Source: Candidatus Brocadiia bacterium
Lineage (GTDB): Bacteria > Planctomycetota > Brocadiia > CAIUPP01
Reading direction: 5' to 3'
Assembly (NCBI GenBank): GCA_050015075.1
Contig: JBEKCB010000025.1
Location: forward strand, 1-64,000
Length of the DNA stretch: 64,000 nucleotides
Part shown: piece after piece, positions 295-19,046 of the stretch
How positions within the stretch are numbered: the first letter of the stretch is position 1
Layout of the letters: each line of letters starts with the position of its first letter
Position numbers and translations under genes: made by a program
Notes under the pieces: generated by a model
The model's input: the letters and a program-made list of their open reading frames with translations, nothing else
What the model was told of the DNA's origin: nothing
Database searches by the model: none

Positions 295-795
295 TCAGGC
301 TATGAACTCAATGCCGCCGCTCTGCGCCGGCGCTGATTGCGCCGTCGCGTTCTGGTTGCCGGCGGCAAGGATTTGCTGAAGCCACGTCGTGGGATTGCTC
401 GCGGCCGTCACGGTGGCGCCCGTTGGCGCTGTGCTGCTGTTGACCGTCCCGCCGGCGCCCGCACCGTGATGAAGATGATATTGTCCTTGGGCCTTCTGAG
501 ACATCATCAGCTTGACGGCGGTCCCAAATTGGTTCAGCGTGAGCCCGTTGCCTGTGGTGTTCAACTGCTGATAGAGCTGGTCCGCGGCGGCCGTCGTCGA
601 GGACGAAGGCGCTGAATTCGAGTTCGCCCCCATGAACTGGTTATAGAAGTTCTCGAACTCGGTCTTGGAAATCGTGCCGCTGCCGTTCGTGTCCGCGGAT
701 TGGAACATCTGCTGTATCAGCATTTGCTGCATCGCTGCGAAGTTGGCTTGATACGTCCCCGAAGTCCCCTGCGTCGCCGATATGGCCTCTACCAC
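295..795 (-). CDS. EF-hand domain protein with Q/S/T/A-rich low-complexity regions
   Basis: ADTNGSGTISKTEF EF-hand loop; GGAGG RBS before GTG start. Confidence 0.75.
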   Translation of the reverse strand: MVEAISATQGTSGTYQANFAAMQQMLIQQMFQSADTNGSGTISKTEFENFYNQFMGANSNSAPSSSTTAAADQLYQQLNTTGNGLTLNQFGTAVKLMMSQKAQGQYHLHHGAGAGGTVNSSTAPTGATVTAASNPTTWLQQILAAGNQNATAQSAPAQSGGIEFIA

Positions 796-969: not shown

Positions 970-2310
970 TTAACTAGCGGCTGGAGGCGTACTTATGTCC
1001 GGCGCGGGACAGATTCTGAGCAGCACTTCTCGCGGCAGCGTCGCCGCCAGGACCAGCACCTCGCACACGAGCCGGCGCATCAGCATGCAGCGGCCGGCGT
1101 GCGGCTGGGCCACGGCGCCGCAGAACTCCAGGCTTTCGCTCCGGCACGCGCCACCGCAGACGTGCCGCGCCCAGCACAGGCTGCATTCCTTCCTCGAGCA
1201 GAACCGGTTATCGAGCCACTGCCCGCGCAGCACCTCGTCAATCACCACCTGCGGCCAGGCGATGCCGATGTGCGAGTTCTGCTGCTTGTGGCAAGCGTAG
1301 ATCAGCCCGGTCGGCCCGACGCTGTAATACCCGCGCCCCGCGCCGCATTCGCTCGGCCGGAACTCCTGCCACAGGATGCGCCGGAGCGTCTTCTCGAGGT
1401 ACTGCCAGCGCGGCGGGGCGCCCGACCGCGCGCGCGCGCCGAACCAGTTGCACGCGCTGCGGATTTCGGCGTCGAGCGTATGTCCGTATGCGGCGCCGGC
1501 GACTGGTTCGAGCGCGACGCCGGCGGCGAGTCCCTGATCGCACAGTTCGTTGAGCGCGCCGAGCCGCGCGAGGACGTCCGCCGGCATTCCACTCCAGGTC
1601 CCGCGCAGGACGATCCGTCCGGAGCATCCGGCGCGATGGAGCCGGCTCAGCCCGCGCCGCATCGCCGCGTAACTGCCAGTGCCGCGCGCCTCGTCGTGCA
1701 GTCTGGGCGTCCCGTCGCAACTGACGATGATCGAGAACCCATGCTTGGCCAGGAACCGCGCCACGATCGGCGTCACCAGCGTCGCGTTCGTGGTGACGTG
1801 GAACACGGCGCGGCGTTTATCCATCTCGGCGAGTCGCTGCGCCATTTCAGTAATCGTCGAGAGCATCCCGAAGTGCATCAGCGGCTCGCCGCCGAAAAAC
1901 CCGATCCGCAGGTCGCGGCCGTCGCCAGGGAACATTCTCAGCGCGGCGGAGGCGATGTCGCGGGTCATCACCGGCGGCTCGGCGTCATCCTTGGCAATCC
2001 AGCAGTATTTGCACCGCAGGTTGCACTGATCGGAGAGATGGAGCGTGAGCTGCCGGCAGGACACATCCGGGCTGAGATCGAACTTCGGCCGCCGCTTCGA
2101 GAACAGCAGCCCCGCAGCAAAGCCCTCTGGGACCGCACGCTGAAGGGCCAGCGCCTGGTGCTGCGCCTTCGAGATCTCGACCGCGACCAGCGTGTTCGCG
2201 TCGAACGCGATGACGCTGTCCTCGCCCACCGTGACGTAATGCACGTCCGGCGCGCAAAGCTCCGTCGCGCCGCGTGGCCGCACCTGCAGATTGAGAATGT
2301 GCGGCGTCAT
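970..2310 (-). CDS. Radical SAM/SPASM protein, ranthipeptide (SCIFF/CteB)-maturase-like
   Basis: CNLRCKYC, FFGGEPL, TTNATL and SPASM motifs CGAG...IYACH...CSLCWARHVCGGAC; short N-terminal RRE-like beta segment; ATGA overlap with the upstream gene places the start at 2310. Confidence 0.85.
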   Translation of the reverse strand: MTPHILNLQVRPRGATELCAPDVHYVTVGEDSVIAFDANTLVAVEISKAQHQALALQRAVPEGFAAGLLFSKRRPKFDLSPDVSCRQLTLHLSDQCNLRCKYCWIAKDDAEPPVMTRDIASAALRMFPGDGRDLRIGFFGGEPLMHFGMLSTITEMAQRLAEMDKRRAVFHVTTNATLVTPIVARFLAKHGFSIIVSCDGTPRLHDEARGTGSYAAMRRGLSRLHRAGCSGRIVLRGTWSGMPADVLARLGALNELCDQGLAAGVALEPVAGAAYGHTLDAEIRSACNWFGARARSGAPPRWQYLEKTLRRILWQEFRPSECGAGRGYYSVGPTGLIYACHKQQNSHIGIAWPQVVIDEVLRGQWLDNRFCSRKECSLCWARHVCGGACRSESLEFCGAVAQPHAGRCMLMRRLVCEVLVLAATLPREVLLRICPAPDISTPPAAS

Positions 2311-3095
2311 GCCGTCCTCATCCTTCCCATACACTCCCATTCCTCCCACGTCCGTTTCGGATCGTACTCGACCACGTTCCACGGCTGGACCATCCACGGC
2401 TGCGGCTTGAAAGTGTAGCGCGCGCGCCAGGCGGCCGGCGTGGCGACGTACAGATGCCGCTTCGGCCAGGGCGAGACGATGCCGCGCCCGACGTAGTCCT
2501 CGCCGGGATAGTTGAACCCGCGCTTCGCGTCGAACTTCATTCCCGGCCGCCAGACCGCGAGCGTGACCTGCGGCCTGTGATACTTCGCATGGATCGAGGC
2601 GTCGCGGATGACGTGATCGCCGTCGCCGACGCAGACGAGCACCGGGAACTCCACACAGAGCGCGGGCTTTTTCACCGCAGAGGCGCGGAGGTCGCTGAGA
2701 ACGGCGGCTTTTGCATTATCAGGAACGCCGTCCTCTGCGTTCTCCGCGCCTCCGCGGTCCATCAAAGCAATGATCTCCTCGATGTTCGGCGGCAGCAGCT
2801 CGTCGGCGTCGGGAAAGAGCACCATCTCCGGCCGCGCCTTGTCCATCAGCGCGAACAGCCGCGCGTGCAGCTCGTGCCCGACCGCGATCGCGTTGGCGGC
2901 GTTGTAGGGAATATCCACGCGGGCGACCTCTGCGAGTTTCGGACAGAGCTGGACGTTGCACATCACTTCCCGCGGCGGTTCGCCGTTGACGAGAATGAAC
3001 AGCGCATCCACGTGCCGCGCCAGGTCGGAGATGATCTGCTCCGCAAACTGCGCCTGCACGCCCTGGTGAATCGTCATCGCGCCGGCGAGTCTCAT
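2307..3095 (-). CDS. Putative GT-A fold glycosyltransferase
   Basis: VLFPDADE DxD motif; operon context; contains an in-frame palindromic insert at about 2673-2758. Confidence 0.55.
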   Translation of the reverse strand: MRLAGAMTIHQGVQAQFAEQIISDLARHVDALFILVNGEPPREVMCNVQLCPKLAEVARVDIPYNAANAIAVGHELHARLFALMDKARPEMVLFPDADELLPPNIEEIIALMDRGGAENAEDGVPDNAKAAVLSDLRASAVKKPALCVEFPVLVCVGDGDHVIRDASIHAKYHRPQVTLAVWRPGMKFDAKRGFNYPGEDYVGRGIVSPWPKRHLYVATPAAWRARYTFKPQPWMVQPWNVVEYDPKRTWEEWECMGRMRTA

Positions 3096-3118
3096 CGCTT
3101 CTCCCTCAATCCAGGCTT

Positions 3119-3197
3119 AACCACGGAATACACGGAACACACGGAAGCTGTTTTTCTCCGTCCCTTCATTTCCGTGTTTTCCGTGTATTCCGTGGTT
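3119..3197. repeat. Intergenic palindromic element (AACCACGGAATACACGGAA...TTCCGTGTATTCCGTGGTT)
   Basis: 19-bp perfect inverted arms built from ~9-bp subrepeats. Confidence 0.75.
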
Positions 3198-3201
3198 GAC
3201 A

Positions 3202-4089
3202 TCAGTCGTTTCCGTCACAGTAGCGCGCGAGCAGTTGATGCAGTTCCAGCGCCTCGTACTCGCTTAATCCGGACCGGCAGTGCGCGAGCAGATCACGGTA
3301 GCGCGGGCGGATGTCGGCCGGCGTCAGCGGCGTCTTGCCGTCGCCCGGATCGGTCTGTAGCTTTCGCCACGCCGCGTCGCGCTGCGCCAGCGTCGCATCC
3401 CAGGTCTCGCGCGGCGAGGAGCCCAGCGGCGCGCTCGCATGCGTGAAGTCGCCGCGCCAGCTATAAATGTAACTCGCGCGCGCACCGACCTCCGTCGTCG
3501 CCAGCCCGAACTCACCGAGCGCGTCGAGCAGCTTCCGGTGTTCGTTGCCGCTGGCAGTTCCATAACCATGGTGCTTCACGAAGCCGCGCGCGAGAATCAT
3601 TGAGGCTTCGTAATTGTTCACGTTCAGTTTGTACTCGCCGGTTGCCGTGAAGTGAATCCACGATCGCGCCGGCTTCCAGCCGAAAGGAATGGTGGAATGC
3701 ACGTCAATCCGATCGTAGCCCTTAGCGAGATCCTCGCCCCTCCTTGCTGCGGCTAACTGCTGCACTGCCTGCGAAAGATGCCACGGCAACCAGGCGTCGT
3801 CATCATCCCACGTGTGCACGAACTCGAACTCGTCGCCGACCTTCCCGAGAAGCCGGTTTCGCGGGATGCCCGGCTCGTCGCTCGGCTCGTTGAAGACCGT
3901 CACATCAGGCAGCTCGCAGCGAAGCGGCACGGGATGATTGTTGAGGATGAACAGCCGCTTCGCCGGATAATCCTGCGCCAGGAAAAACGCCAGGCATTCC
4001 CGCATCCGCTGGAAGCGGCCGTACGTGCAGGTCAGGCACGCGACCAGAGGAAGTGCAGACTGCGGACTGCGGACTGCGGGATCGGTCAT
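3202..4089 (-). CDS. Glycosyltransferase family 2
   Basis: VACLTCTYGR...FLAQDYP...RN...TWDDDDAWLPWHL; ATGA overlap places the start at 4089. Confidence 0.85.
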   Translation of the reverse strand: MTDPAVRSPQSALPLVACLTCTYGRFQRMRECLAFFLAQDYPAKRLFILNNHPVPLRCELPDVTVFNEPSDEPGIPRNRLLGKVGDEFEFVHTWDDDDAWLPWHLSQAVQQLAAARRGEDLAKGYDRIDVHSTIPFGWKPARSWIHFTATGEYKLNVNNYEASMILARGFVKHHGYGTASGNEHRKLLDALGEFGLATTEVGARASYIYSWRGDFTHASAPLGSSPRETWDATLAQRDAAWRKLQTDPGDGKTPLTPADIRPRYRDLLAHCRSGLSEYEALELHQLLARYCDGND

Positions 4090-6101
4090 GGCTTCTCCAT
4101 CCTCCATTTCGCCGCGACGGCGGGATCGTGCGTGTGCTCGTAGGTCAGCGCCGGATCGGTCGGCGTCCACCAATTGGCTTTGCCCTCGAAGCTCTGTCGG
4201 CACGGCAGCGGCAGCCAGAGCTTCGTGAGGCCGAGGCGCTCGATCTTCGCCGTCCAGATGCGCTCGAGGACCGCGCCGGCGCCGAGCGGCGCGACCTCGG
4301 AATCCTCCGGCCAGGTGCGCGCGAGGAAATCCGTCCGCGCGGCGAAGACCTTCGTGACCGTGCATTTGTTGTCGCAGATTCCCGTGACCAGCGCCGCTCC
4401 TTGAGCGGAGGACATCGCGCGCCGCACCATCTCCTGCGCCCAACCCGGACGCGGATGGAACACGTCCGCGCCGATCTTCACGACCCATTCAAATCCACCG
4501 CCGCGGGCCTGCGCAGTGGCGGCGCGGACGGCGCGCCTCTCGCCGACCGGCAGTCCGGGATTGGCGCCGGTTTCGATGACGTTGATGCCGGAGACTTCAG
4601 GCCAGCCGCGAATCGGGCTCGCATCGCCGACGACGCAGAGCGCGATCTCGTCCGCTCCGGAGGCGCGCGCCGATTCCAGGCAGCGGTCGAGAATCTGCCG
4701 CTTCTCCTCCAGCGTCGCCGCGTTGGAGCTCGTGCCGTCATCGGCCGAAATCGTAATCGCCAGAAGAATCTTCTTTCCCTGGTTCAGCGTCTTGTCCTCC
4801 GCGCCCTGGACGCGCGTCTCGCGGTCGGCAGCGATCCGGCGATCCAGCTCGGCGAGCAGTTCGTCGGAGTTCAGCTTGAACCGGCTTTGAGCGTCGGCGC
4901 GGTAGCGGTTAAATTCGTCGGTCTCAACCTGCGCGAGGACGTGCTCGGGGATCGCGCCGTGCGGCCCCTGTCCTGCCGCCAGCCGCGCGCGGTAATCCTC
5001 CCAGTGCGCGTCGTCCAGCACCAGCCGCCACGCGGCCGCGTAGCCGAGCCACGTCCCGTTCTCCATCGTCGTGCCGAACGGCACGCTCACGCCGGTCTTC
5101 GAACCGCGGAAGAGATGCCAGAGCGCGACGCCGTCATGGAACAGGATCGGCACCTGGTGCGCCGCGGCCAGGAGCGCGACGGCGAGTTCCTGCGCGCCGT
5201 GGAAATTCGGCAGCGCCGGCCAGCCGCCGAACCGGTCGAGGACCGTCCTCGGGATCGCGTAGAACGCGCCCATCATCAGCGAGGTCGGCCAGAGCTCGAG
5301 CTTCGGCAGGTCCGGCCGCCGCTTCATCCAGCGTCCGCCGAGCATTCCCTTCTCCGGCACCAGGCACGCGCCGGCGCGCCCGCACGTGAACATGCAGCCG
5401 CCGTACACAATCGCCTGGCGCTCCAGCGCCGCCGCGGCCAGCGTGCGCAGCTTGTGCGGCCGGTCCAGCATCTCCTTGAACTCCGGCCTGACCGGCCCGA
5501 TTTCGGGATACCGCGTCGCGAACCAGCACGCCGTCTCCCAGTCGAGCGCGTTGTGCGCGTCGAGGAAGATCACCACGTCGCCGCTCGCGCGCAGCGCGCC
5601 GAGCCGCCGCGATCGCGGACCGCCGATCCGCGTCGGATTGCGGATGGCCGAGACCGGCTCCGGGACGGTCGAGCCGTCGTCCACCACAATGATCTCGGCG
5701 TCCGGACAATCGTGCTTGACGCTGGCGACGGTCGCGACGAGGTTCTCGCGCTCGTTGAGGCTGGAGATCACAACGGAAATAGACGATGGACGAGAGACGA
5801 TGGACGATTGCACGGCAGCCGATGGCATCTGCGCCGCCTTCATCTCGACCAGCATCTTCTCCTTGCACGGCGCGCAGTTCGTCAGATCCTTCCGGCCTTC
5901 GAAAATGTCCGCGCCGGCCCATTTCTTTTTCGGGCAGTTCGAGTCCGGGCCGCCCATGAACGCGTGGTCCATCACCAGCCACTTCGCGGAGTCCGTCCCC
6001 GGCGCGGCGCAGAGCTTGCGGTGGATTCCCGTCGCCGGGTTCATGCTCTGCTGGTGCTCGAACTCGCATCGGACGCAGATTTGTGCTCGGCTTGGGTTCA
6101 T
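4086..6101 (-). CDS. Multidomain glycosyltransferase: Cys-rich N-terminus, GT2/GT27 (ppGalNAc-T)-like domain, second GT-like domain
   Basis: ISVVISSLNE, IIVVDDGS, RRLGALRASGDVVIFLDAH (DxH), MGAFYAIPR..LDRFGGW, WHLFR; start at 6101 just after the tail-tip gene stop. Confidence 0.8.
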   Translation of the reverse strand: MNPSRAQICVRCEFEHQQSMNPATGIHRKLCAAPGTDSAKWLVMDHAFMGGPDSNCPKKKWAGADIFEGRKDLTNCAPCKEKMLVEMKAAQMPSAAVQSSIVSRPSSISVVISSLNERENLVATVASVKHDCPDAEIIVVDDGSTVPEPVSAIRNPTRIGGPRSRRLGALRASGDVVIFLDAHNALDWETACWFATRYPEIGPVRPEFKEMLDRPHKLRTLAAAALERQAIVYGGCMFTCGRAGACLVPEKGMLGGRWMKRRPDLPKLELWPTSLMMGAFYAIPRTVLDRFGGWPALPNFHGAQELAVALLAAAHQVPILFHDGVALWHLFRGSKTGVSVPFGTTMENGTWLGYAAAWRLVLDDAHWEDYRARLAAGQGPHGAIPEHVLAQVETDEFNRYRADAQSRFKLNSDELLAELDRRIAADRETRVQGAEDKTLNQGKKILLAITISADDGTSSNAATLEEKRQILDRCLESARASGADEIALCVVGDASPIRGWPEVSGINVIETGANPGLPVGERRAVRAATAQARGGGFEWVVKIGADVFHPRPGWAQEMVRRAMSSAQGAALVTGICDNKCTVTKVFAARTDFLARTWPEDSEVAPLGAGAVLERIWTAKIERLGLTKLWLPLPCRQSFEGKANWWTPTDPALTYEHTHDPAVAAKWRMEKP

Positions 6102-6103
6102 GT

Positions 6104-9082
6104 TCAACTCGGGGTTAGCGTGTAGGTGATTCCGTGGACTTCGATCACGAACGTTGACATGCAATCGTACTTGCCGTCGGTGGTTGCCGGAGCGTAGTTG
6201 CCTTCCCAGCCGGCGCCGCCAATCGGAGTTATGCCGAGCCGGACTTCCCAAAGATCGAAGATGACACCTGCGGTGAGGCCATTGCTGAGTTGCGCGGCAA
6301 AGGTGCAGTGGCCTTCGGTCAAAATCAGTGTTCCGCTCGATCCATCCGATCCCGTCAGACGAATACTTGCCGGAGTCGCGCCCGAGCAGGCGTCACAGCC
6401 GACCGGCGAGGTCGGCGGCGAGGTCGGAGCCGACGTGTGCGCCGCGGTATGAGCTGCCGTAGGCGCGGACGTGTGCCCGGCGGTCGGCTCGGAGGTCGCC
6501 CCCGACGTGTGCGCTTCGGTCGGCTCGGACGTGTGCGCTTCGGTCGGCCCCGACGTGTGTTCTTCGGTCGGCGCGCTCGTCGGCGGCGAAGTCGGCGCGC
6601 CGGTGTAGGGCGATGTCGGCGCTGGAGTGCCCGATGGAGTCGTCGCCGGCGGCGTACCCTCCGCCGTCGTCTCCAGAGGCGTCGTGTCGTTCGGTGTCGT
6701 CTCGCCCGGCGTCGTCCCCGGCTCGCTGCCCGGCTCCGTCGAGCCGCGAAGCACGATCCCGTTCAGCTCGAATTGCGTCGTGCAGAAAAGCTCGCAGCCG
6801 ATCTGGCAGCTTGTCTCGCAGGCCCAGCAGCCGCCCGGCGGCATCGCCTCGGCGAGCGTGTCGCAGACGCCGGACGGGAAATACGGGATCTCGGCGCTGA
6901 GCTTGATTCCCGGCACCGCGCGGTTCGATCCGCCGCCGAGCGTGTGCTCGATGCCCACCACGCGCGCGACCTGGCCCGCTCCGAACCAGCCGGCCAGGTC
7001 GAGGTCGAACAGGTCGTACGGTTCCGCGTCGAGCCGCCGCAGCGAGTCCACCAGCGCGATCTGCTGCCAGATGTACTGCCAGCGGTTCAGCCAGAAGTTC
7101 GCCACGCCCTGCACCGGCGCCAGGCTCGCGTACGCCCAGAAGTCAATCGTCTTGGCGATGCGGCCGCCGACGAACTCCTCCGCCGCCGGCGACCGAAGAA
7201 TTATCGTCCGCCGCACCGCGTTGTCAATGTACGAGCCGGTGATCTCCGTGACGATCTGGTTCCATTCCCGGCGCGCGATGTCCAGCGAGCCGAGATAACG
7301 ATCGGCTCCGGACGTCGGCGGCGTGCCGGTTGGGACCATGACGTTGGTCAGGTAGATCAACTGCGCCTGGCCGGCGAAGAAGACCTCGGCGCAACGCGCC
7401 TGGAACGCGAGATCGGCGCAGAGTTCGAGTCCCTTCTTCTGCTCGGTCAGCGCGAAGCCCATCAGCAGCGCCGCCGTCGCCGTCTTCGCCGCGGCGAAAG
7501 AATCGGCGTCAATGTTGTCGCTCGTCATGCCCATCCAGCGCGTGTGGATCGCCTGGATGATGTCGGAGGGATTCTGCAAGAGCGTCCCGGTCCCGTCGCC
7601 GACGCTCTCCACGCCGTCGAGCGTGATCCACAGGTCGTCGTTCTTCATCCGGATATCGAGCTGCGACGGCGGCAGGCTGAACGTGATGCTCGTCACCGCG
7701 CGGCCCGGGCACGTGGCCGTGTCGTTGTAGTTGATCGTGTAGAGCGAAGGATCGAGCGCGAAGTACCATTCCGTCGGCGTCGTCCAGATCTGTCCGTTGA
7801 TCCACAGGCTCAGCGGATGGCCATAGCCCTCGACGCTGTAAACCTTCTTTGAAGGCGCGTCATTGACCACGTAAGTGTAGTTCGAACGCGCGACGTAGAC
7901 CTTCGATCCGCACGGATGTCCGGCCACGTTGCTGCCGATCTGGTACGTCGCGCCGATCGGCAGCGTGTACGTATGGCCGGCGTTCGTGAACGCGTCGCCG
8001 ATCCACGTCGTCTGCGTCGGATCGAGCGGGTTGACGTAGGCGAATCCGCTCAGCATGCCGAAGACGATGGTGTGCGTGGCCGAGTCGTAGCTCTGGATGA
8101 TCTTCCGCTGCACCGTGCCGTCCGGCGACGTGAAGAGAATGTAGTAGCCGACGTAGGTGCCGTCCGGACCGGTGAGCGCGCTGTCCACCAGGTGCTGGCA
8201 ATCCACGCCGAGCGCGGTGACCGTGCCGGTGTAGAGCGGCGCGCCGCGCTCGGTGATGCTGAAGAAGTTGCCGTTGAACTGCCCGTTGATCCGCTCGCCG
8301 CCGATCCAGATCTCCATCGGCGTGAGCTGCGGGAAATACTCCGCGTCGTTCACGTACAGGCCCATGTCGAAGTAGTTGCAGACCCGCGCCAGCTCGGTCA
8401 CCGGCCCGAAATCCACCGCCACCGCGCGCGCACGCATGACGTGGCCGAAGACCAGCGGGATCAGCTTGTTCTCGTCAGTCTGGACCACGTTCGGGCAGTC
8501 CAGCCGGTCGGCGAAATTTCCGACCGTGCGGTTGAAATAGGTCGAGATGTCCGTGATGTCCAGCAGCACCGCGTGGTCCCGCTCGCTCCACGTGCACGGC
8601 GCGTTGATGATGCCGACGTGGAGCTTGACCAGGTCGCTCTCGGCGTTGCCCCGGAACTGCTGATAGATTGCCACCCACGCGCGCTGCGGCTCGATGCTCT
8701 GGAAATAATTGAAGAGGACCTTGTCCTCGTCGCGCAGCTTCACCGTGCAGTCGCCGACGACGTTGACCGCCTTGTCCGCCTTGATCCCGAGCCGCACGAC
8801 GCCCCACTCGAGCACGCGCCCCTGAGCGTTGTCCCAGGACGCCCCATCGCCGGAGCCGAAATCCTCTTGCGCGTACCACTTCACCCCGACCGGCGCGGCC
8901 GGAGGCAGCGTCGGTCCGCCGCTCGTCGTCGCTCCGGTCTCGGAGACCGTCGGCTCGCCCGGCGCAATGAGAATCGGCGCCGTGCTGCCGCCGGCCGCAG
9001 GCCAGGAAATCTGCAGCAGGCAATACGGCTTGCTGCTCTCGGAGTCCGCCGCGGCGATTGTCGAAGATGTTAGTGTGCGCAT
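6104..9082 (-). CDS. Phage tail-tip/baseplate hub-like protein with a C-terminal six-Cys motif and mucin-like stalk
   Basis: Follows the Dit-like gene; IPLVFG and NPSDII motifs typical of tail-tip proteins; TSxPT repeats. Confidence 0.7.
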   Translation of the reverse strand: MRTLTSSTIAAADSESSKPYCLLQISWPAAGGSTAPILIAPGEPTVSETGATTSGGPTLPPAAPVGVKWYAQEDFGSGDGASWDNAQGRVLEWGVVRLGIKADKAVNVVGDCTVKLRDEDKVLFNYFQSIEPQRAWVAIYQQFRGNAESDLVKLHVGIINAPCTWSERDHAVLLDITDISTYFNRTVGNFADRLDCPNVVQTDENKLIPLVFGHVMRARAVAVDFGPVTELARVCNYFDMGLYVNDAEYFPQLTPMEIWIGGERINGQFNGNFFSITERGAPLYTGTVTALGVDCQHLVDSALTGPDGTYVGYYILFTSPDGTVQRKIIQSYDSATHTIVFGMLSGFAYVNPLDPTQTTWIGDAFTNAGHTYTLPIGATYQIGSNVAGHPCGSKVYVARSNYTYVVNDAPSKKVYSVEGYGHPLSLWINGQIWTTPTEWYFALDPSLYTINYNDTATCPGRAVTSITFSLPPSQLDIRMKNDDLWITLDGVESVGDGTGTLLQNPSDIIQAIHTRWMGMTSDNIDADSFAAAKTATAALLMGFALTEQKKGLELCADLAFQARCAEVFFAGQAQLIYLTNVMVPTGTPPTSGADRYLGSLDIARREWNQIVTEITGSYIDNAVRRTIILRSPAAEEFVGGRIAKTIDFWAYASLAPVQGVANFWLNRWQYIWQQIALVDSLRRLDAEPYDLFDLDLAGWFGAGQVARVVGIEHTLGGGSNRAVPGIKLSAEIPYFPSGVCDTLAEAMPPGGCWACETSCQIGCELFCTTQFELNGIVLRGSTEPGSEPGTTPGETTPNDTTPLETTAEGTPPATTPSGTPAPTSPYTGAPTSPPTSAPTEEHTSGPTEAHTSEPTEAHTSGATSEPTAGHTSAPTAAHTAAHTSAPTSPPTSPVGCDACSGATPASIRLTGSDGSSGTLILTEGHCTFAAQLSNGLTAGVIFDLWEVRLGITPIGGAGWEGNYAPATTDGKYDCMSTFVIEVHGITYTLTPS

Positions 9083-9088
9083 TTATCC

Positions 9089-9403
9089 TCACCCCGCCAC
9101 AACGGTTGGAGCAGGACTCTGACCATTGCAGCCAATGAACGTCCACGATCCCACGATGTTGCTCAGAGCGGTTCCGGTCGTAGAGGCCTCATAGAGCGGC
9201 TTCTGATCCGTCAATGTGTTGTCAATCACCCACCTTCCTGACGTGGAATTGTAGTGAAGGTAGATGCCGTTGCTGTTCATCCAGTAGTTCTGGCCATCGT
9301 GAGTCCCGGACTGCCGAGCATAGTTGCCATCTACGTTGGCATTAGCTGATCCGGCGCCTGAAGCGGTGTAGGCGAAGAAGGTTCTGTTGTATCCCACGAT
9401 CAT
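9089..9403 (-). CDS. Small beta-rich tail-associated protein
   Basis: ATGA-coupled to the fibre gene; visibly lower GC than neighbours. Confidence 0.6.
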   Translation of the reverse strand: MIVGYNRTFFAYTASGAGSANANVDGNYARQSGTHDGQNYWMNSNGIYLHYNSTSGRWVIDNTLTDQKPLYEASTTGTALSNIVGSWTFIGCNGQSPAPTVVAG

Positions 9404-11481
9404 GCTCTGACCACCTCCAGGGAAACCGTAACCCTCGTCACCGTGGTCGCGCTGTTCACCTTGAAGGCGATGATGTTGCCGGCGGTGAGGCTCGTGCTCC
9501 AACCGGTCAGCGTCGAGTCCTGGCTCTTCTGCGCGCTCGAGAGCGTCGGCAGGTCGGAGGCCGCGATGGAGGACGTGGTCGGGAATCCCGAATACGTGGA
9601 CGTCTGGACGTCCACGACGATGCTCCCCGACTGGTCCGCCAGCAGCGTCACGCGCTGAATCGTGCAATTGAACGGGATTTCCAGGAATCCCTTCACGCCC
9701 GTCGTGATCGCCGAGCCGCCGCCGTCAATCACGAACTCGATCGCATCCGGAAGGGCCAGCACGTCGTCGCCGCCGGTCAGGTGCGTGCTCTCGTGCGCGG
9801 TCGGCGTCCTCGCGTTGGTCAGCCTCGAATCGGACGATGCCACGATTCCGCCGTGTGCCGTCGTCGTCAAGCCGGCATGCGTGTTCAGGTTGCCCTGCAC
9901 CGTCGCCGCCGCGCCGGCCGCATCGCTCGCGGCTTCAGCCGCGCTTTCCGCAGTCGAGATCGCCGAGCCAAGCGCCGTCCGGACCGCCTTCTCGCTCGGC
10001 ACGTTGCTGTCGCTTCCCGGCGAGCCGACAGTAATGACGAGCGCGCTCGCCGCAATGCTCGCCGCCTCGGCCGCAGACTGCGCCGATGCCGCCGCGCCCG
10101 CCGCGTCGAAGGCGCTGCTGGCCTGGAACGCCGCGGTCCCGAGCGCGCCGCCGTCCTCGAGGGCCTTGCCGGTCGCGTCGGCGAACAGTACGACGTGCCC
10201 GGCCATTGACGAGTCCGGTCCGGTGACATCGCCCGATCCCAAGCCGGAAACGGAGTCCGCGATCGCCGTCCGCACCGCCTTCTCGCTCGGCACGTTGCTG
10301 TCGCTTCCCGGCGAGCCGACAGTAGTAACCAAGTCGGCAATCGGAATGCTCGCCGCCTCGGCCGCAGACTGCGCCGCAGCCGCCGCACCGGAGGCGTCCG
10401 CCCCGACATCGCTCGGACCCAGCGTCACCGCGCCGACTTTGCCGCAGACGCTCGAGACGACCTGCTGGTTGTCTATCCGGTTCCAGGACGCGCCGTTATA
10501 AGTCAACCAGTCGCCCGCGCCGTACGTCGTGCCGCTGATCGTGCCCGCGGCCGAGCAGACCCAATACTGGCCTTTCGCCGGCGATGCCGGATACGAGCCG
10601 CCGGAGCAGTCGAAAGTTCCCTGATAATCCAGCGCGCCGACAATGGCCGCCGGGAGCTGGCTCGTCGGCACCTTGCCGCTCGCATCCAGCGTGGCAACGC
10701 CGCTGTCCGCGCCGGCAGATGTCAGCGGGATGCTCGCCGCCTCCGCCGCGGCCTGGGCCGCAGCCGCCGCGCCGGCGACATCCGCGCCGATGCTCGCCGG
10801 ACTGATCGGATCGGAACCGGTGGATGCGTGCGTCGAGGCGTGCGCGGTCGGCGTCCGGGCGTTGGTGAGCCTCGAATCCGTCGCAGCCACGATCCCGCCG
10901 TGCGCCGTCGTCGTCAGGTCCGCGTGCGCGAGCAGATCGTCTTCAAGCGCGTACTCCGGCGGCGAGGTCGGCGGCGAGGTCGGGCCTGAAGTGCCCGCCT
11001 CGGTCGGCGAACTCGTCGCCCTGCCCGTCGCCGACGAAGTGGAGGCCGATCCGCTGGAAAGGTGCAGCTTGATCGTCAGTTCGTAGAATCCGCCGGAGCG
11101 CACGGTGGTCGCCACCGTGTCGCCGCCGGTGACGAAGCTGCCGGTGGAAGCCGCCTCGTCGGCGACGGTGACCGGAGCGAGCGTCGCGCTGAGGAAATAC
11201 GCCGCCCATGCGACGTTTCGCTCGTCGGTGAACGTGAACTCGTTCAGCGTGCCCTGCGCCTGGTTCTTGAAGAAACTCTGAACGTCGTTCAATTCGCTCA
11301 GGCGCAGGTTCGACCACTTCAACTCGCGCCGCGTGTCCGTCGCGTCCGCCAGCGCGAAGCGGTAGAACCCGCCGCTCGCCTTCGGCTGCACGACCTGGTG
11401 CGGATCGAGATCGAGCTGGTCGTTCAGGTCCGGGTTCTGGACCGTCGCCGTCACGCCGCCGAGAGAAAAGGAAACGCTCAT
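9400..11481 (-). CDS. Distal tail (Dit)-like domain fused to a tail-fibre-like protein
   Basis: N-terminal ...VQSFFKNQAQGTLNEFTFTD; internal duplications (TTTAHGGIVA..DSRLTNARTPTAH x2, GSPGSDSNVPSEKAVRTA x2); GVATLDASGKVP fibre motif. Confidence 0.65.
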   Translation of the reverse strand: MSVSFSLGGVTATVQNPDLNDQLDLDPHQVVQPKASGGFYRFALADATDTRRELKWSNLRLSELNDVQSFFKNQAQGTLNEFTFTDERNVAWAAYFLSATLAPVTVADEAASTGSFVTGGDTVATTVRSGGFYELTIKLHLSSGSASTSSATGRATSSPTEAGTSGPTSPPTSPPEYALEDDLLAHADLTTTAHGGIVAATDSRLTNARTPTAHASTHASTGSDPISPASIGADVAGAAAAAQAAAEAASIPLTSAGADSGVATLDASGKVPTSQLPAAIVGALDYQGTFDCSGGSYPASPAKGQYWVCSAAGTISGTTYGAGDWLTYNGASWNRIDNQQVVSSVCGKVGAVTLGPSDVGADASGAAAAAQSAAEAASIPIADLVTTVGSPGSDSNVPSEKAVRTAIADSVSGLGSGDVTGPDSSMAGHVVLFADATGKALEDGGALGTAAFQASSAFDAAGAAASAQSAAEAASIAASALVITVGSPGSDSNVPSEKAVRTALGSAISTAESAAEAASDAAGAAATVQGNLNTHAGLTTTAHGGIVASSDSRLTNARTPTAHESTHLTGGDDVLALPDAIEFVIDGGGSAITTGVKGFLEIPFNCTIQRVTLLADQSGSIVVDVQTSTYSGFPTTSSIAASDLPTLSSAQKSQDSTLTGWSTSLTAGNIIAFKVNSATTVTRVTVSLEVVRA

Positions 11482-11614
11482 TTAATTATTCCTGTAACCT
11501 CCGATGGACGCCGATGAATGCAGATAAGGCAAACGACCGAGTAATAATCCGTATCTGCGTTCATCACGCGCGCAGTACACTGCGCGCTCTGGGTCCCTCG
11601 GCGGTTAAAAAATA

Positions 11615-12166: not shown

Positions 12167-12233
12167 AACTCTCACCTCCAAAAAACGTTTTCACCACTAC
12201 GACCCGACGCGCGCGACGTACGGATTTACCAAC

Positions 12234-13500: not shown

Positions 13501-13512
13501 CGCCGCCTCCTT

Positions 13513-14539: not shown

Positions 14540-15481
14540 TTACGCCGCGGTCGTCGGGGCGCCGGAAGTGCCCTGCGAGCCGTAGGCGAGCCACCACGCG
14601 ATGGCCTTCACTGCGCCGCGGTAATCCATGCCGAAGTCGAAGCGCTTCTGGTAGAAAACGTTCGGGTCGTCGAGCTTCACCATCGGCGTCAGCGCCAGCG
14701 GCCGGCGCACCTGGTTGACCACCGGCTTGATCGGCTTCGAGCAGTCCAGCATCATCCACTGGTTGCCGGTCCACATCGGCATCTTGATCTGGTTCTCTTT
14801 CGGGAACTTCCCGTAGAGCGTCTGGCTGATCTGGCTGGAGTTGGCCAGCGGCACGTTGAAGAGCTGGTCCACGGCCTGCTCCAGCGCCGGCGAGAACAGG
14901 AAGTGCGTCGGCTGGACCAGGAGCACGATGCCGTCCGGTCCGACGAAGGTGCTCATCTGCTTGATGCCCGCGTAGACCGCCGCGGCCGAGAGGTATGCCG
15001 TCGTCAGGTTCGACTGCGGAGCGCCGGCGGCGCCTTTCATCCCCTGCCAGACGTGCGAGCTGGAGAAGAACGGCACGCCGTCGAAACCGACCGACTCGGC
15101 GAAGGCGCCGACGCCGAGTTCGTCCTGCACCTGCAGCCACGGCTCGAGCACGCCGAGCGCGGCCTGCTGCTGGATCGCCAGCGCGTATGCCCCCGTCACG
15201 TCGTCCTCGATGTCCTCGCGCGGCACGCCGATCGTGTGCTCGAAGGTCAGGTTGCGGACGCTCGCCTCGAACGCGGCCAGGTCCTGGATCACGCGGTCCT
15301 TCACCCACTCGCGCATGCGTCCGGTCAGCGCGGCGACCGGGTAGTGCTCGATGCGCGTGGACGACGGCACCGCCGAGGCGATGTCGTCAATCCGGGTCTT
15401 CGTGCGCTCGAGCGTCTGCTGAAAAATGGTGTTGAACGACACCCACAACGCCTCCAGCGTTGCGGCATTGACTACTGCCAT
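14540..15481 (-). CDS. Mu-like major capsid protein (gpT family)
   Basis: VPSST..EHY...MREWV.DR, FEHTIGVPREDIEDD..G.Y, FDGVPFFS..H, W.MLD.SKPIKP, W.LAYGS; AGGAG RBS. Confidence 0.92.
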   Translation of the reverse strand: MAVVNAATLEALWVSFNTIFQQTLERTKTRIDDIASAVPSSTRIEHYPVAALTGRMREWVKDRVIQDLAAFEASVRNLTFEHTIGVPREDIEDDVTGAYALAIQQQAALGVLEPWLQVQDELGVGAFAESVGFDGVPFFSSSHVWQGMKGAAGAPQSNLTTAYLSAAAVYAGIKQMSTFVGPDGIVLLVQPTHFLFSPALEQAVDQLFNVPLANSSQISQTLYGKFPKENQIKMPMWTGNQWMMLDCSKPIKPVVNQVRRPLALTPMVKLDDPNVFYQKRFDFGMDYRGAVKAIAWWLAYGSQGTSGAPTTAA

Positions 15482-15571
15482 TGCGTCATCTCCTAAAAAA
15501 ATTCCTGTGCTACACAATCGGCAATCGGCATTCCTGTCGCGCAAGCGCGACACGGGCAATCTGCAATTCCG

Positions 15572-16024
15572 TTAGGCCGCCGTCGTCGGCGCACTGGTCA
15601 CCGGCAGCGCCGGCTCGACGTACGCGCCGCGCATGTCCACCAGCACTCCGTATCGGTCCACCGACTTGATGCGGCCCGCATACGTGTTCGTGCCGGCGGT
15701 CAGCGTCACGGTGTGATCGTCGGCGAAGTACGCCGGCTGGCCGACGCTCGCCTGCGTCAGCGTCGCGGCCGAATCCCAGTACGCGGCCTCCGGCGTGATG
15801 ATCTCCACGGTCTCAGCGCCGGCCGCGCCGGCGGAATTGTCCACCGTCTCGTCGGCGATGCCGCGGAAATGCCTCACGCCCGGGCCGGCCGGAACCGCAA
15901 AGCCGCCCGAGTTCAGCCCCACCGCGGCGCCGTTGAAGATCTGCGTCGCGGCGGCCACGGGCGCCTCGTCGCGGTGCAGCTCGTCCACGAACTCCGTGTC
16001 CCGATCCGACGTCAAGTTGCTCAT
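15572..16024 (-). CDS. Capsid cement/decoration protein
   Basis: PVAAAT.IF.GA.V...G.AVP, GIADETVDN..GAAG, VGQPAYFADDHTV; lies between protease and capsid. Confidence 0.8.
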   Translation of the reverse strand: MSNLTSDRDTEFVDELHRDEAPVAAATQIFNGAAVGLNSGGFAVPAGPGVRHFRGIADETVDNSAGAAGAETVEIITPEAAYWDSAATLTQASVGQPAYFADDHTVTLTAGTNTYAGRIKSVDRYGVLVDMRGAYVEPALPVTSAPTTAA

Positions 16025-16075
16025 GCGACTGCTCCTAAAAAAGAGACCATTGACCATAGACGACAGACGATGTCC

Positions 16076-17350
16076 TTACCCAACCATCCGCCGCTTCGTC
16101 GCCAGGAACTCCGCCTCCTTCAGCCCCGCCTGCTCGCAGGCCCAGCGGTCGGCGTCGGAGAGGACCGGCGTCTCGGCGGCGGCCTGGGCGCCGGCGGCGC
16201 TCGTCGCGCCTCCGAGCACCGGCGGCATGCTGTTGAGGATTTCCCGTGCGCCCTCGAAGTCCTGCATCGCCAGCCGGATGAACGCCTCCCGGTTCGCCGG
16301 GGTGATCTTCCGCTCGACGGAGATCGCGTTCTCGATGAGCTTCTCGGCCGCCGACTGCGCCGGCATCGCCCGGCTCGCGCCGATCAGCGCCAGCAGCTCG
16401 GCCAGCGGCCTGTCCGGCGTCGCGCCGAGCGCGTTGCAGATCGAGAGCAGCTTCACATCCGCATCGCTCGTAGAGGCGCCGTCAGGCGCTACTTTGAGCT
16501 TGTCGAGTGCCGCCTTGATCGCGGCCTCGTCGGCCGTCTCCGCCACGCCGAGCGAGCTGGCGAAGACCTTCACCTGGATGGACGCGCGCGTGCCGGCGTC
16601 CATCAGGGTCATGAGCGCTCTGCCGATTACGTCCGCCTTGGCGTCTTCCGCGACGCCCAGGCTGTTGGCGACGGTCTTCGCGTCAAGCGCGGGAGCGCCT
16701 GCGCGCCCCTCGTTCATGGCCGCCGCCAGCAAGGCGAGCAAATTCTGCATGGCTCCGCCCTCCTCTTCTGCGACGGCTGAATCGGGAGCGCCGGTGCGCT
16801 CCTCTGCCAATCCGGCGGCGGCGGCGTCGCTGTTCGCCACGGCCGGAAGCGCCTTCTTGAACGGACGGTTCGTCAGCGCCACGGAATCGAGCACCCACCG
16901 GATGATCCGGCCGGTGACCGGGTCCTTGTAATCCTTCAGCAGGTGCGAGCTGAGGTAGCGGAATTTCCTCTCGCGGATCAGCGCGCGCGCGTCGGCCACC
17001 CACTTGATGTGCGCCCACAGTTCGGTATCGTTGTTCCGCCCTTCGAGGGAATTGATCCAGCCGCCGGACTCGGCGCTCTTGCCGAGCAGCTTGGCGACCA
17101 CGCCCTGATGCTCGTAGTCCACCGGCAGGTCCACGCCGTTCGCGCGGCAGGCCTGGTTGAAGTACTCGACGATGCAGCGGATGTCCGCCGGCGTCAACCG
17201 GTACGCGCCGGCCGGGTGGCCTTCCCACTCGCCTTGCAAATCCACCTGGTACCAGCCTTCGGCCGGGACGCCGTTCGGCCCTGAGCTCACGTCCGAAGGG
17301 TCGGCGGGAAGCGCACCGGCGGAGTTGCTGAGCTGTTCCCGGTTTTCCAT
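16076..17350 (-). CDS. Mu-like prohead protease/scaffold (gpI)
   Basis: LPVDYEH, GWI..LE, LWAHIKW, RYLS, SVALTNRP motifs; helical scaffold C-terminus. Confidence 0.9.
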   Translation of the reverse strand: MENREQLSNSAGALPADPSDVSSGPNGVPAEGWYQVDLQGEWEGHPAGAYRLTPADIRCIVEYFNQACRANGVDLPVDYEHQGVVAKLLGKSAESGGWINSLEGRNNDTELWAHIKWVADARALIRERKFRYLSSHLLKDYKDPVTGRIIRWVLDSVALTNRPFKKALPAVANSDAAAAGLAEERTGAPDSAVAEEEGGAMQNLLALLAAAMNEGRAGAPALDAKTVANSLGVAEDAKADVIGRALMTLMDAGTRASIQVKVFASSLGVAETADEAAIKAALDKLKVAPDGASTSDADVKLLSICNALGATPDRPLAELLALIGASRAMPAQSAAEKLIENAISVERKITPANREAFIRLAMQDFEGAREILNSMPPVLGGATSAAGAQAAAETPVLSDADRWACEQAGLKEAEFLATKRRMVG

Positions 17351-17352
17351 GG

Positions 17353-18795
17353 TCAGTCACCCGCCTTTCCATCGGTTGTCGTCGCGGAAGACGCGTTCGT
17401 CCGATCCGCCGCAATCGGCGCCAGCACTTCCTCGCCGTCGGCAGGCGCGGGAATCCCGAACTTCCTCCGCGCCCATTTCGCCGGCACGCGCAGCCCGACA
17501 CTGACGAGCGTCAAGACGCTCGTCGCCAGCCGCTGCAAGTCCACCGGCTCCTCGACCAGCGTGCGATAGACCGGCGCGGCGACCTCCGGCCCGAAGTTCA
17601 GCAGCGTGATCGGCCCGAAGAACTGCCGGTTCAGCGTCTCGTCGAGCGCCCGCGCGTCCGAATCCACCAGGTCGAAGCGCACCGCCTCGTGCGCCCGGCC
17701 GCTGTACCCGAGCGTGTGCCCTTCGCCGTTGCCGCCGGTGAACGTCTGGCCGAGCACCGCAAGCGCCATCTCCTCGCCCGCGCGCTGGCGCAACTGGTCG
17801 TACATCGCGCCGTCGCTCGACGCGCGCGCCGCGTCGGCGAACGTGATCTTTCCGCCGGCGGGCACCATCCCCGCCGCCGCGCTGCCGAGGGACGTCAGCG
17901 CGCGCCACATCAGGTCGGCGTCCTCCTGCGTCGCGCCCGGCGGCAACTCGCCGAGGCGGACGGGAATCCCGCAGAGTTCCGCCAGTTGCAGCCAGTCGCG
18001 TAGCGCGTAGTTGCGAACCAGGAACGGTCGCGCGCAGGCGAGCGAAATGCCGCCGCGCTGGAGCGATCCGCTGAGCGCGTTGTGCCGGTGGAGAATGAAA
18101 TTGAACGGGTTCACCGGCAGCCCGAGCGGCGCCGATACGTCGCGCAGGAGCAGCTTCTGCCGGTCCACCAGGTCGAGCGTCCACCAGCGCTGCGGGCGGA
18201 ACTTCAGGTCGCTCGGCAGCCACTGCCGCTGGCTGGTCTCCCAGAGGATTTCGAGGCAGGCGAATCCCTTGGCGACCGCGTCGAGCAGGTCGCGGAGGCG
18301 GTCGCTCCAGGACTGGATGCGTCCGAGGCGCTTGCCGTCGGGCGCGGGCAGCAGCGCGGCGCAGAAATCGCGCGCCCGGAGCGATGCGCTCGAATCGTCG
18401 CCCGGCTCCAGCGCGAACTCGCAGCTCGTCACGCCCGCCTTGCGCTGCGTGAAGAGGCCGGAGAGGCGCGCGTCGCGCTCCTCCATCGCCTCGAACAGCT
18501 CCATCTGGTGGAGGATGTTGCCCTGCTCGGCCTCGCGGAGCAGGTTCACCAGGCGCGCCGGGGTCAGCAGATCGGCGACGGTATTCGCCATGTAATACCG
18601 CCAGCCGCCGAGCGTGGCCGGGGCGATCTCGCGCGTCTCCGGCTTCGTGTACGGCTTGCCGTACTGATCGAGGATCGCGTGCGGATCGCGCATTGCGGCC
18701 GGCTGCGGCTGCTGCCGTTCGGCGCTGCTCACGGCAGGCAGGCCATACTTGTCGAGGCCGGTCGGCAGCATCGTCATCAGCGTGACATCGCTCAT
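17353..18795 (-). CDS. Mu gp29-like portal protein (DUF935)
   Basis: L.EAEQG....Q.ELFE.MEERD, DLLDAVAKGF..LEI.W, DW...AE..GIPVRLG, AVLGQT, AHE.VR.DL..SDA. Confidence 0.92.
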   Translation of the reverse strand: MSDVTLMTMLPTGLDKYGLPAVSSAERQQPQPAAMRDPHAILDQYGKPYTKPETREIAPATLGGWRYYMANTVADLLTPARLVNLLREAEQGNILHQMELFEAMEERDARLSGLFTQRKAGVTSCEFALEPGDDSSASLRARDFCAALLPAPDGKRLGRIQSWSDRLRDLLDAVAKGFACLEILWETSQRQWLPSDLKFRPQRWWTLDLVDRQKLLLRDVSAPLGLPVNPFNFILHRHNALSGSLQRGGISLACARPFLVRNYALRDWLQLAELCGIPVRLGELPPGATQEDADLMWRALTSLGSAAAGMVPAGGKITFADAARASSDGAMYDQLRQRAGEEMALAVLGQTFTGGNGEGHTLGYSGRAHEAVRFDLVDSDARALDETLNRQFFGPITLLNFGPEVAAPVYRTLVEEPVDLQRLATSVLTLVSVGLRVPAKWARRKFGIPAPADGEEVLAPIAADRTNASSATTTDGKAGD

Positions 18796-18842
18796 CGAAG
18801 AATCCCTCAGCAATTAACTTCCGGCTCCTCGCTCGCTCTCCC

Positions 18843-18991
18843 GATTATAAGGGTGAAATTCCGCTCCGGAGCCGCGCGACAAAGTGAGTGCGCTTGCGAG
18901 TGGTTTCAGTGCGCTTCGGAGTGGTTTGAGTGCGCTTCAGTGCGCTTCGCAGCGGTTTCAGTGCGCTTATTTTCGCGAGCTGGATTTGACA
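18843..18991 (-). promoter_or_regulatory. Phased-repeat late promoter, copy upstream of the portal gene
   Basis: Five AAGCGCACT boxes (spacing 21/21/10/21) and TATAAT at 18844-18849; twin at 22092-22240. Confidence 0.75.
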
Positions 18992-19046
18992 CCCCTCGGC
19001 AAACGAGCGCGGATTAGCATAATCAGGGATGCGCGCTCGGACTTCA

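Follow-up and report, generated by a model that had tools for sequence, protein, structure and literature searches.

Several of the described radical S-adenosylmethionine (rSAM) enzymes with a SPASM domain install thioether cross-links in peptides or in whole proteins. The closest to the subject of this work is the SCIFF/maturase system (ScfA/ScfB; CteA/CteB in Clostridium thermocellum; TIGR03973/TIGR03974), in which the substrate is a stand-alone peptide of ~45 residues with six Cys near its C-terminus. Here we analyse a window of 64,000 nucleotides, the first 64 kb of contig C25 (JBEKCB010000025.1) of a 4.64-Mb, 66-contig genome from a Candidatus Brocadiia bacterium (GCA_050015075.1), in which a phage late region encodes a putative tail-tip protein of 992 residues containing a SCIFF-like six-Cys motif and, further along the same strand, an rSAM/SPASM enzyme. 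We propose, with a probability of roughly 0.6, that this enzyme cross-links the tail-tip protein itself via thioethers at the Cys motif. The features on which this proposal depends are the following:

6104-9082, minus strand: open reading frame (ORF) of the 992-residue hub protein
6878..9082, minus strand: predicted baseplate hub domain, residues 1-735 (AlphaFold2 model and Foldseek)
6773..6871, minus strand: SCIFF-like six-Cys motif, hub residues 738-770
6416..6745, minus strand: Thr/Pro-rich low-complexity stalk, approximately residues 780-889 (~110 residues), assigned from the sequence; pLDDT (predicted local distance difference test) <50
6107..6415, minus strand: C-terminal beta-rich domain, residues 890-992 (AlphaFold2 model)
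970..2397, minus strand: rSAM/SPASM enzyme, longest ORF of 475 residues

With SCIFF, the window motif has in common the spacing of the core Cys, 11/25 residues being identical to a SCIFF precursor from the viral contig L121, and CteB is the best solved relative of the window enzyme by sequence and fold, with the same three-cluster SPASM architecture. The two systems differ in that SCIFF is a small separate peptide whereas the window motif lies inside a 992-residue virion protein, that the N-terminal recognition domain of the window enzyme is shorter, that its gene is not adjacent, and that the context is a phage tail operon. Thioethers in a protein, and not in a leader-bearing peptide, are made by QhpD, which in passages of PMC8326336 is described as joining Cys to Asp and to Glu by thioethers in QhpC, which serves quinohemoprotein amine dehydrogenase (QHNDH) as its gamma subunit. 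QhpD is among the four best NCBIfam matches of the window enzyme (117 bits), although QhpC is a small enzyme subunit with three links and the window target would be a structural virion protein whose relatives have up to 166 Cys. The same passages attribute beta or gamma thioethers to SCIFF, freyrasin and NxxcA, and name Asp, Glu and Thr as thioether acceptors (PMC8326336); for SCIFF, the link is reported as Cys32-Thr37. PapB/freyrasin and NxxcB/NxxcA provide examples of repeated short rings, Cys-to-Asp or Asn-x-x-Cys (passages of PMC8326336), and PapB and the nif11-type maturase are the top two NCBIfam matches here. The substrates of PapB and NxxcB are small peptides. In our case the candidate acceptor is mostly Glu or Gln directly after Cys.

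A second whole-protein substrate is CrpA of Methanococcus voltae, a repeat-rich protein of 28.8 kDa with a C-X-X-Q/D motif, Cys being near the Q/D acceptor, on which CrpC installs ranthionine, according to the main text of PMC13692751 (September 2026). The likeness is that of a Cys-rich repeat protein cross-linked by a neighbouring rSAM/SPASM enzyme with an RRE, the recognition element of peptides that are made by the ribosome and modified after translation (RiPPs). The difference is that CrpA is cellular and archaeal, with a possibly metal-related role and a 17-residue repeat, whereas here a four-residue unit, C-[E/Q]-x-x, is fused to a phage hub. That main text mentions no phage, nothing viral and no tail, and has 'virus' only in 'tobacco etch virus protease'; the paper also lists similar clusters for all domains of life (PMC13692751). 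In the CXXX-repeat rSAM target systems (TIGR04114, TIGR04115 and TIGR04117), too, every fourth residue is a Cys and an rSAM/SPASM enzyme is the neighbour, but the viral arrays described below do not match their target models (E-value of 0.99 for locus L046; 15 bits for L158). What these families are is taken from their model descriptions only, and no paper on CXXX repeats together with radical SAM turned up in the full-text literature searched. As for the phage side, the fold of residues 1-735 and the position after a tail gene are common to the window hub, T5 pb3, lambda gpJ and the hub of the Rhodobacter capsulatus gene transfer agent (RcGTA), whereas the Cys motif or array and a dedicated rSAM enzyme were seen here only in one part of the hub family. 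In the full-text literature searched, there was no report of rSAM enzymes modifying proteins of phage tails or virions. QhpC and CrpA are already known examples of whole proteins cross-linked by thioethers, while a virion substrate appears to be undescribed.

The six-cysteine motif, the hub protein and the enzyme

The minus-strand translation of 6773-6871 is GVCDTLAEAMPPGGCWACETSCQIGCELFCTTQ, with six Cys. The initial annotation had given this sequence exactly, its end coordinate (6870) being one base short. For five of these six, the next residue is D, E, Q or T (C740-D, C755-E, C759-Q, C763-E and C767-T). The motif is strongly conserved: in 12/12 homologs, which are 35-84% identical to the hub protein, the residues C740, C752, C755, C759, C763, C767, E745, G751 and E756 are invariant, and D741, T742, W753, A754, Q760, E764, L765, T768 and T769 are kept in at least 90% of them. 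SCIFF (TIGR03973, six_Cys_in_45) is the only NCBIfam match of a 53-residue piece with the motif (E-value of 0.0016, 18.3 bits for a cut-off of 50), and the alignment spans model positions 10-36 of 43. The whole hub protein scores 12.2 bits, again below the cut-off of 50, and the SCIFF precursor from L121, taken as a control, 82.2 bits. The motif aligns with this precursor without gaps and with GGC..C.TSCQ..C...C in common, which confirms the spacing GGCxxCxTSCQxxCxxxC that the initial annotation had given for clostridial SCIFF cores; the core Cys spacing, GGC-x2-C-x3-C-x3-C-x3-C, is present in the hub motif. Judged from these alignments and scores, the motif is SCIFF-like yet not a SCIFF. In a six-frame translation of the 4.64-Mb genome, the pattern C[EQ]xxC[EQ]xxC occurs in three ORFs only: the hub, a protein of a second prophage on contig C48, and one Fe-S-type protein. 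Given this genome-wide rarity and the invariance over 12 homologs, the motif is, as a sequence pattern, beyond chance.

The hub protein has no Pfam or PHROG match, so that its identity comes from fold search only, and a tblastn search of 50,697 deposited phage records gave no match, hence no cultured relative among them. The AlphaFold2 model was built from an alignment of 61 sequences and has a mean pLDDT of 80.9: most of residues 1-735 exceed 90, values drop to less than 50 over residues 737-889, and confidence returns in the beta-rich residues 890-992, with confident strands at 906-991. This C-terminal domain is kept among close homologs. Foldseek against the PDB placed T5 pb3 (7zhj_b, E-value of 9.6e-19) and the DT57C baseplate (8hqz_A, 2.8e-17) at the top, followed by lambda gpJ (8iyk_F, 3.6e-10), RcGTA (6tba_8A, 4.6e-7), JBD30, Chi and T1, with a probability of 1.0 and template modelling (TM) scores of 0.37-0.52 for the T5 chains. 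The modelled residues 1-735 have the fold of a siphophage baseplate hub or tail tip, in agreement with the earlier description of the product as a tail-tip protein. With this fold at residues 1-735 and the stalk after it, the Cys motif is situated exactly where the chain exits the hub. The Thr/Pro-rich stalk is probably glycosylated by the neighbouring glycosyltransferases, whose genes are directly downstream, and the C-terminal beta domain is possibly the receptor-binding end of a central fibre.

The enzyme ORF, 970-2397 on the minus strand, contains LHLSDQCNLRCKYC, FFGGEPLM, LRGT, CGAG...Y..V.P.G..Y.CH and CWA...C.G.C, that is, every segment previously listed as CteB/ScfB-like. Its start is likely Met30, at 2310, which matches the homologs. 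The rSAM cluster motif, CX3CX2C, reads CNLRCKYC, and the SPASM part has seven Cys (CGAG...C; CxxCx5Cx3C; one later Cys), with two auxiliary clusters expected; all of them are invariant or nearly so across 38 aligned sequences. Against NCBIfam, the best match is PapB (NF047865) with 162.1 bits, below its cut-off of 340, followed by the nif11-type maturase (158 bits, cut-off 519), the SCIFF maturase TIGR03974 (128.5 bits, cut-off 425) and QhpD TIGR03906 (117.4 bits, cut-off 453). The sactisynthase models RumMC and StsB reach 79 and 59 bits, and the CXXX-repeat target rSAM model TIGR04115 reaches 40.9 bits (cut-off 350); the CrpC-type TIGR04463 was not among the best 25 of the 65 NCBIfam matches. 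The anaerobic sulfatase-maturating enzyme (anSME) model TIGR03942 scores 55.3 bits (cut-off 349), in the N-terminal rSAM core only. The comparison of SCIFF maturase with anSME profiles, which the initial annotation had suggested as a check, therefore favours the former (128 bits, with PapB at 162, nif11 at 158 and QhpD at 117, versus 55 bits). By its family scores, the enzyme is below every curated cut-off but placed among thioether formers.

The structural comparisons point in the same direction. In a single-sequence search of the PDB, CteB was matched with an E-value of 2.6e-29, 8vpo (titled TigE) with 1e-11 and anSME with 1e-4. The ranking is taken from this search and not from a profile search, whose alignment included real SCIFF maturases and was biased to CteB. 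The closest named database relatives are annotated SCIFF maturases with ~29-30% identity. The AlphaFold2 model of the enzyme has a pLDDT of 92.6, and its N-terminal part consists of four strands and two short helices. It superposes on CteB with a Z-score of 36.0 and a root-mean-square deviation of 2.5 Å over 391 residues (model residues 28-434 versus CteB 1-450), so that the N-terminal domain is covered, whereas the alignment with anSME (Z-score of 28.4) begins at residue 93 only. In this respect, the stretch earlier called RRE-like does superpose on the N-terminal domain of CteB, although the likeness is partial, as discussed below. Substrates of anSME carry the motif (C/S)-x-(P/A)-x-R. In the hub protein, its only occurrence is SGADR at residue 591, outside the Cys motif, and a role of the enzyme as an anSME, with formylglycine formation, was rejected on the scores and on the lack of this substrate motif in the Cys motif. 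A complex prediction of the enzyme with hub residues 720-790, three 4Fe-4S clusters and S-adenosylmethionine gave no verdict (score 0.01, mark 0.32) and was used neither way.

Cysteine arrays in relatives and their linkage to the enzyme

The motif has counterparts of a much larger size. At the motif position, the two most distant of the 12 homologs, together with viral and metagenome loci, have long arrays in which every fourth residue is a Cys. A hub profile search of 1.84 billion representatives identified 1766 relatives with an E-value of at most 0.001, and the best 150 of these 1766 hub-family representatives were used for a census in which a run was defined as at least four Cys spaced by four. 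Runs were found in 64 of these 150, with 48/60 in the highest-ranked representatives after the top two versus 14/88 in the lower-ranked ones. The first run starts at a median residue of 692, and the largest number of Cys is 166, in 1380 residues. Among 2441 repeat units of the fetched loci, Cys is followed by E in 48%, by Q in 37% and by T in 7%, and the next two positions are small or beta-branched, the array unit in the relatives being C-[E/Q]-x-x.

Linkage was determined by comparing an rSAM alignment profile with the stop-to-stop ORFs of the fetched loci, with E-values below 1e-10 and within flanks of 10 kb. Four loci duplicating contigs, and a fifth identical to the window, were left out of the count, which gave 63 array loci. 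A related rSAM/SPASM ORF lies within 10 kb in 50/63 array-bearing loci; it is on the same strand as the array in 49 of the 50, and abuts or overlaps the array ORF in 24. In array-less loci the enzyme was found in 0/9; five of these nine belong to Cys-less hub homologs and have flanks of 4-10 kb. The pairing of the motif with a matching maturase, first proposed from the window alone, finds strong support in the comparative loci (50/63 versus 0/9). Among the 13 array loci without the enzyme, eight have at most 304 bp after the array ORF before the contig ends. In 15 further loci, the neighbouring enzymes have PapB, SCIFF, nif11 and QhpD ranking first, all below cut-offs.

The reverse test began from the enzyme: viral contigs were scanned with the rSAM alignment and 80 loci were kept. 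Viral rSAMs at least 28% identical to the window enzyme (n = 33) have arrays totalling at least eight Cys in 22 cases, a short run in three and none in eight. Two of these eight carry irregular C-E arrays, located in large ORFs directly upstream; in three, the upstream sequence is shorter than 1.3 kb, and the last three show nothing. With 24-27% identity (n = 26), large arrays were counted in five cases and short runs in 11, the latter including many SCIFF peptides, and with 23% identity or less (n = 21) there are one large array and three short runs. The presence of a regular Cys run nearby thus falls with rSAM identity, from 25/33 to 16/26 and 4/21.

The same pairing is repeated in the genome itself. 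Contig C48 (locus L086) has a second phage late region, with capsid-protease, decoration, neck and minor tail matches. Its positions 9651-13785 hold a tail-module protein of 736 residues with a very large Cys array, then an ORF of 193 residues, then an rSAM gene. The array units are mostly C-T-x-x and C-Q/E-T-x, with Cys every fourth residue, and the rSAM is 34% identical to that of the window, with SCIFF and nif11 maturases ranking first.

Smaller peptides were also seen next to viral rSAM genes. In L158 (6111-6509) and L142 (7571-8002), ORFs of 130-145 residues consisting of nearly nothing but C-[E/Q]-x-x units adjoin viral rSAMs; that of L158 is a weak match, with 15 bits, to the NCBIfam CXXX-repeat target models. 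These small ORFs may be intermediates between peptides and large tail proteins. SCIFF-type ORFs are located ~300 bp upstream of rSAMs in the viral contigs L113, L115-L119, L121, L129, L138, L139 and L149, where the rSAMs are 24-29% identical to the window enzyme. Seven of these ORFs were inspected and read as SCIFF precursors, which means that classic SCIFF pairs also travel on phage or prophage DNA.

Proposed cross-linking and competing explanations

In the mechanism we propose, the 992-residue protein would serve a siphophage-type prophage as baseplate hub and central fibre, and the rSAM enzyme would act on its six-Cys motif of C-[D/E/Q/T]-x-x units within the infected cell, either ahead of tail assembly or in the course of it. 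The enzyme would abstract a hydrogen from a side-chain carbon of the acceptor Glu, Gln, Asp or Thr, and this carbon would then be joined to the sulfur of Cys, the predicted product being non-reducible thioether rings of the ranthionine type. The acceptor could be three residues before a Cys, by analogy with NxxC, or five after, by analogy with the SCIFF link Cys32-Thr37, and the links could be either within one chain or between the three hub copies. In the relatives, the unit repeated tens of times would probably form the central fibre itself, and in the window phage the short motif would have the role of a lock on the collar that lies between hub and Thr/Pro-rich stalk. A plausible purpose would be a covalently braced fibre or collar independent of redox state. 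On the computable points, the interpretation given in the initial annotation is supported; the thioether chemistry we infer from the enzyme's relatives, from the fixed acceptor-type residue after Cys, and from precedent (PMC8326336, PMC13692751).

Beyond the window, there is about an even chance that a large, so far unrecognised group of environmental phages makes its central tail fibre of rSAM-installed thioether ladders, (C-[E/Q]-x-x)n with up to ~160 Cys, which would be fused to the hub or another tail protein and each be served by a ranthisynthase-like enzyme of its own. If this were true, the window phage would represent the minimal, single-motif form, and the fibres would have covalent bracing, would not respond to reduction and would probably resist proteases, which would suit particles that have to last in anoxic, reducing habitats where disulfides fail. 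Cross-linking of the tail tip would give rSAM enzymes a new role, the covalent reinforcement of a virus particle instead of the synthesis of bioactive peptides or cofactors, and RiPP-type radical chemistry would become a step of virion morphogenesis. It would also account for many phage 'radical SAM domain' genes beside tail genes, offer a large natural set of enzymes tolerating very long repetitive substrates, useful for peptide and protein stapling, and supply SCIFF-type motifs, whose native role is debated, with a structural analogue in a clear context. The idea is directly testable by co-expression and mass spectrometry.

Several observations weigh against the proposed cross-linking. The proposal rests on sequence, fold and gene neighbourhood, and both the enzyme and the motif are far below all curated cut-offs, so that the type of reaction is an extrapolation. 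In the phage enzymes, the N-terminal domain has retained its strands and is without ~25-30 helical residues of the SCIFF maturases, and the description of an RRE-like N-terminus holds only in part. The motif region has a pLDDT below 50, which makes no structural statement possible for the motif. In the window, the rSAM gene is not adjacent to the hub gene but 3.7 kb downstream, with three glycosyltransferase-like genes between, and it could serve those or another target. The linkage counts keep near-identical contigs from different samples (L016/L020, L012/L013, L071/L073 and L084/L085), and the background rate of rSAM in viral contigs is taken from the nine array-less loci only. Five array loci, L019, L045 and L052, L064 and L074, have at least 4 kb downstream and no recognisable rSAM. 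L045 and L052 are on one contig, which is 42% complete; in L019, glycosyltransferases follow the array as in the window, and then the contig ends; the array of L074 is weak. In L064, only a divergent CX3CX2C protein of 520 residues (19 bits, no Pfam match) is encoded directly upstream of the array, and this Cys-rich protein may be an enzyme of the same function that has diverged very far. Pfam searches of the ORFs near the arrays of L045, L064, L074 and L019 revealed no radical SAM domain, but glycosyltransferases, methyltransferases and helix-turn-helix proteins. The rSAM profile had no match (0/5) in the whole records behind L045, L064, L074, L042 and L059, of which three are at most 34% complete, one is 42% complete, and L064 is complete. 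L064 is a viral genome of 35.6 kb with 32% GC and terminal repeats, and it encodes a protein of 759 residues with 119 Cys (7541-12271).

The best of the competing explanations, which we consider unlikely, is that the Cys motif and arrays are metal-binding, Fe-S-binding or disulfide elements, and that the rSAM enzyme acts elsewhere, on a sugar or on a protein handled by the glycosyltransferases. In lambda, gpL of the tail tip carries an Fe-S cluster. The three glycosyltransferase-like genes that separate the hub and rSAM genes in the window, and the lack of a confident model for the motif region, would both suit this explanation, as would the fact that Cys-rich proteins are mostly metal ligands (stated in the main text of PMC13692751). 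However, in 50 loci the rSAM gene tracks the arrays and not the glycosyltransferases, abutting the array ORF in 24, and the Cys-less hub homologs are without the enzyme (0/5). The near-fixed E, Q or T after Cys fits thioether acceptors rather than a metal site, and the relatives of the enzyme are all cross-linkers of Cys in peptides or proteins.

Slightly less probable again is that the enzyme does modify the hub motif, but by another chemistry, such as alpha-carbon sactionine formation, inter-chain links between three hub copies, or some other modification of Cys. The enzyme meets no ranthipeptide family cut-off, sactisynthase models also match it (RumMC at 79 bits and StsB at 59 bits), and since the hub is trimeric in the matching solved tail tips, inter-chain links are geometrically conceivable. 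Yet its best matches by sequence and fold, CteB, PapB, nif11 and QhpD, are those for which passages of PMC8326336 report beta or gamma links, and the conserved E, Q, D or T beside Cys suits side-chain acceptors, as expected for thioethers of the kind we propose.

According to the third explanation, which is very improbable, the likeness would be incidental in this phage: a small precursor peptide encoded past the contig end or at another place would be the real substrate, and the hub motif would be what is left, unmodified, of a longer array. Contig C25 ends 295 bases past the last gene of the region, an EF-hand gene, so that the downstream neighbourhood lies outside the data, and genuine SCIFF precursors do occur beside more distant rSAMs in gut viral contigs, but no stand-alone SCIFF-like ORF was found in window positions 1-6200, no such small peptide in a pattern scan of the whole genome for ORFs of at least 25 residues, and none after the rSAM of L015, L016 and L020, whose flanks are longer, among the listed plus-strand ORFs of at least 70 residues, and in 12 homologs, with identities as low as 35%, the motif does not vary, unlike a relic. 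The first two of these scans uphold the earlier remark that no stand-alone precursor gene lies nearby.

Gene content of the phage late region

The window has a G+C content of ~0.54-0.69, and the phage late region occupies the minus strand from ~20.7 kb down to 0.3 kb. Apart from the hub and the rSAM enzyme, the features identified are:

14540..20732, minus strand: Mu-like head module (terminase, portal, protease and capsid matches)
19047-20732, minus strand: terminase large subunit
17353-18813, minus strand: Mu-type portal
16076-17350, minus strand: Mu-type protease
14540-15559, minus strand: Mu gpT-like major capsid protein
9400..11481, minus strand: tail protein of 693 residues, directly upstream of the hub gene (PHROG tail/minor-tail families, E-values of 2.5e-14 to 3e-27)
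4086..6251, minus strand: family-2 glycosyltransferase (GT2), longest ORF (Pfam Glycos_transf_2, E-value of 1.8e-17)
3202..4488, minus strand: second GT2-like protein, without a family match of its own
2307..3095, minus strand: protein of 262 residues without a family match, adjoining the rSAM in close relatives too
295..795, minus strand: EF-hand protein downstream of the rSAM (Pfam EF-hand_5, E-value of 1.8e-7)

The Mu-like head module marks the region as a prophage or phage-like element, and the gene order of terminase, portal, protease, capsid, tail protein and hub is that of a phage late operon; small ORFs without assignment lie between the capsid gene and that of the 693-residue tail protein. 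To the right of 22.1 kb the genes are cellular-looking (GFO/IDH/MocA oxidoreductase, GH16 and URO-D), and between the terminase start and the cellular-looking genes (20733-25913) there is a single ORF of 161 residues. No replication, lysogeny or lysis genes were seen around the late region, and a complete prophage, a remnant or an element resembling a gene transfer agent are all possible. At the other side, 295 bases separate the EF-hand gene from the end of the contig. The Candidatus Brocadiia source fits an anoxic setting, which is given as context only.

A simple scan of the minus strand found no terminator-like site between the hub gene and the rSAM gene, which gives weak support to their belonging to one transcription unit. 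The longest ORF of the first GT2 overlaps the end of the hub gene, and its real start is probably just past the hub stop, as in L015. By eye, the core of the 3202-4488 protein resembles the GT2 and methyltransferase ORF of L019, where the ORF at 6084-8066 matches Pfam Glycos_transf_2. The Atlas neighbours of the 262-residue protein are viral glycosyltransferase-like clusters, which is a lead only. In several loci, glycosyltransferase genes travel with the pair of hub and rSAM (of the GT2 type in the window and in both L019 and L045, of the GT9 type in L011), and the operon, with 2307-6251 of the window and its relatives, looks like a tail-fibre modification cassette. The EF-hand gene, of calcium-binding type, is also present in the relative L016 (16600-17100). 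Finally, a short Cys motif of the type N-C-A-P-C-K-x-K recurs N-terminally in the glycosyltransferases and in one rSAM: sites are found in the window at ~5800-5900 on the minus strand (the GT2 N-terminus), in L019 (4897-6087) and in L023 (4039-5502), and the set also includes a separate ORF of 97 residues in L011 (13524-13817), with a weak match to DUF6171 (E-value of 0.006).

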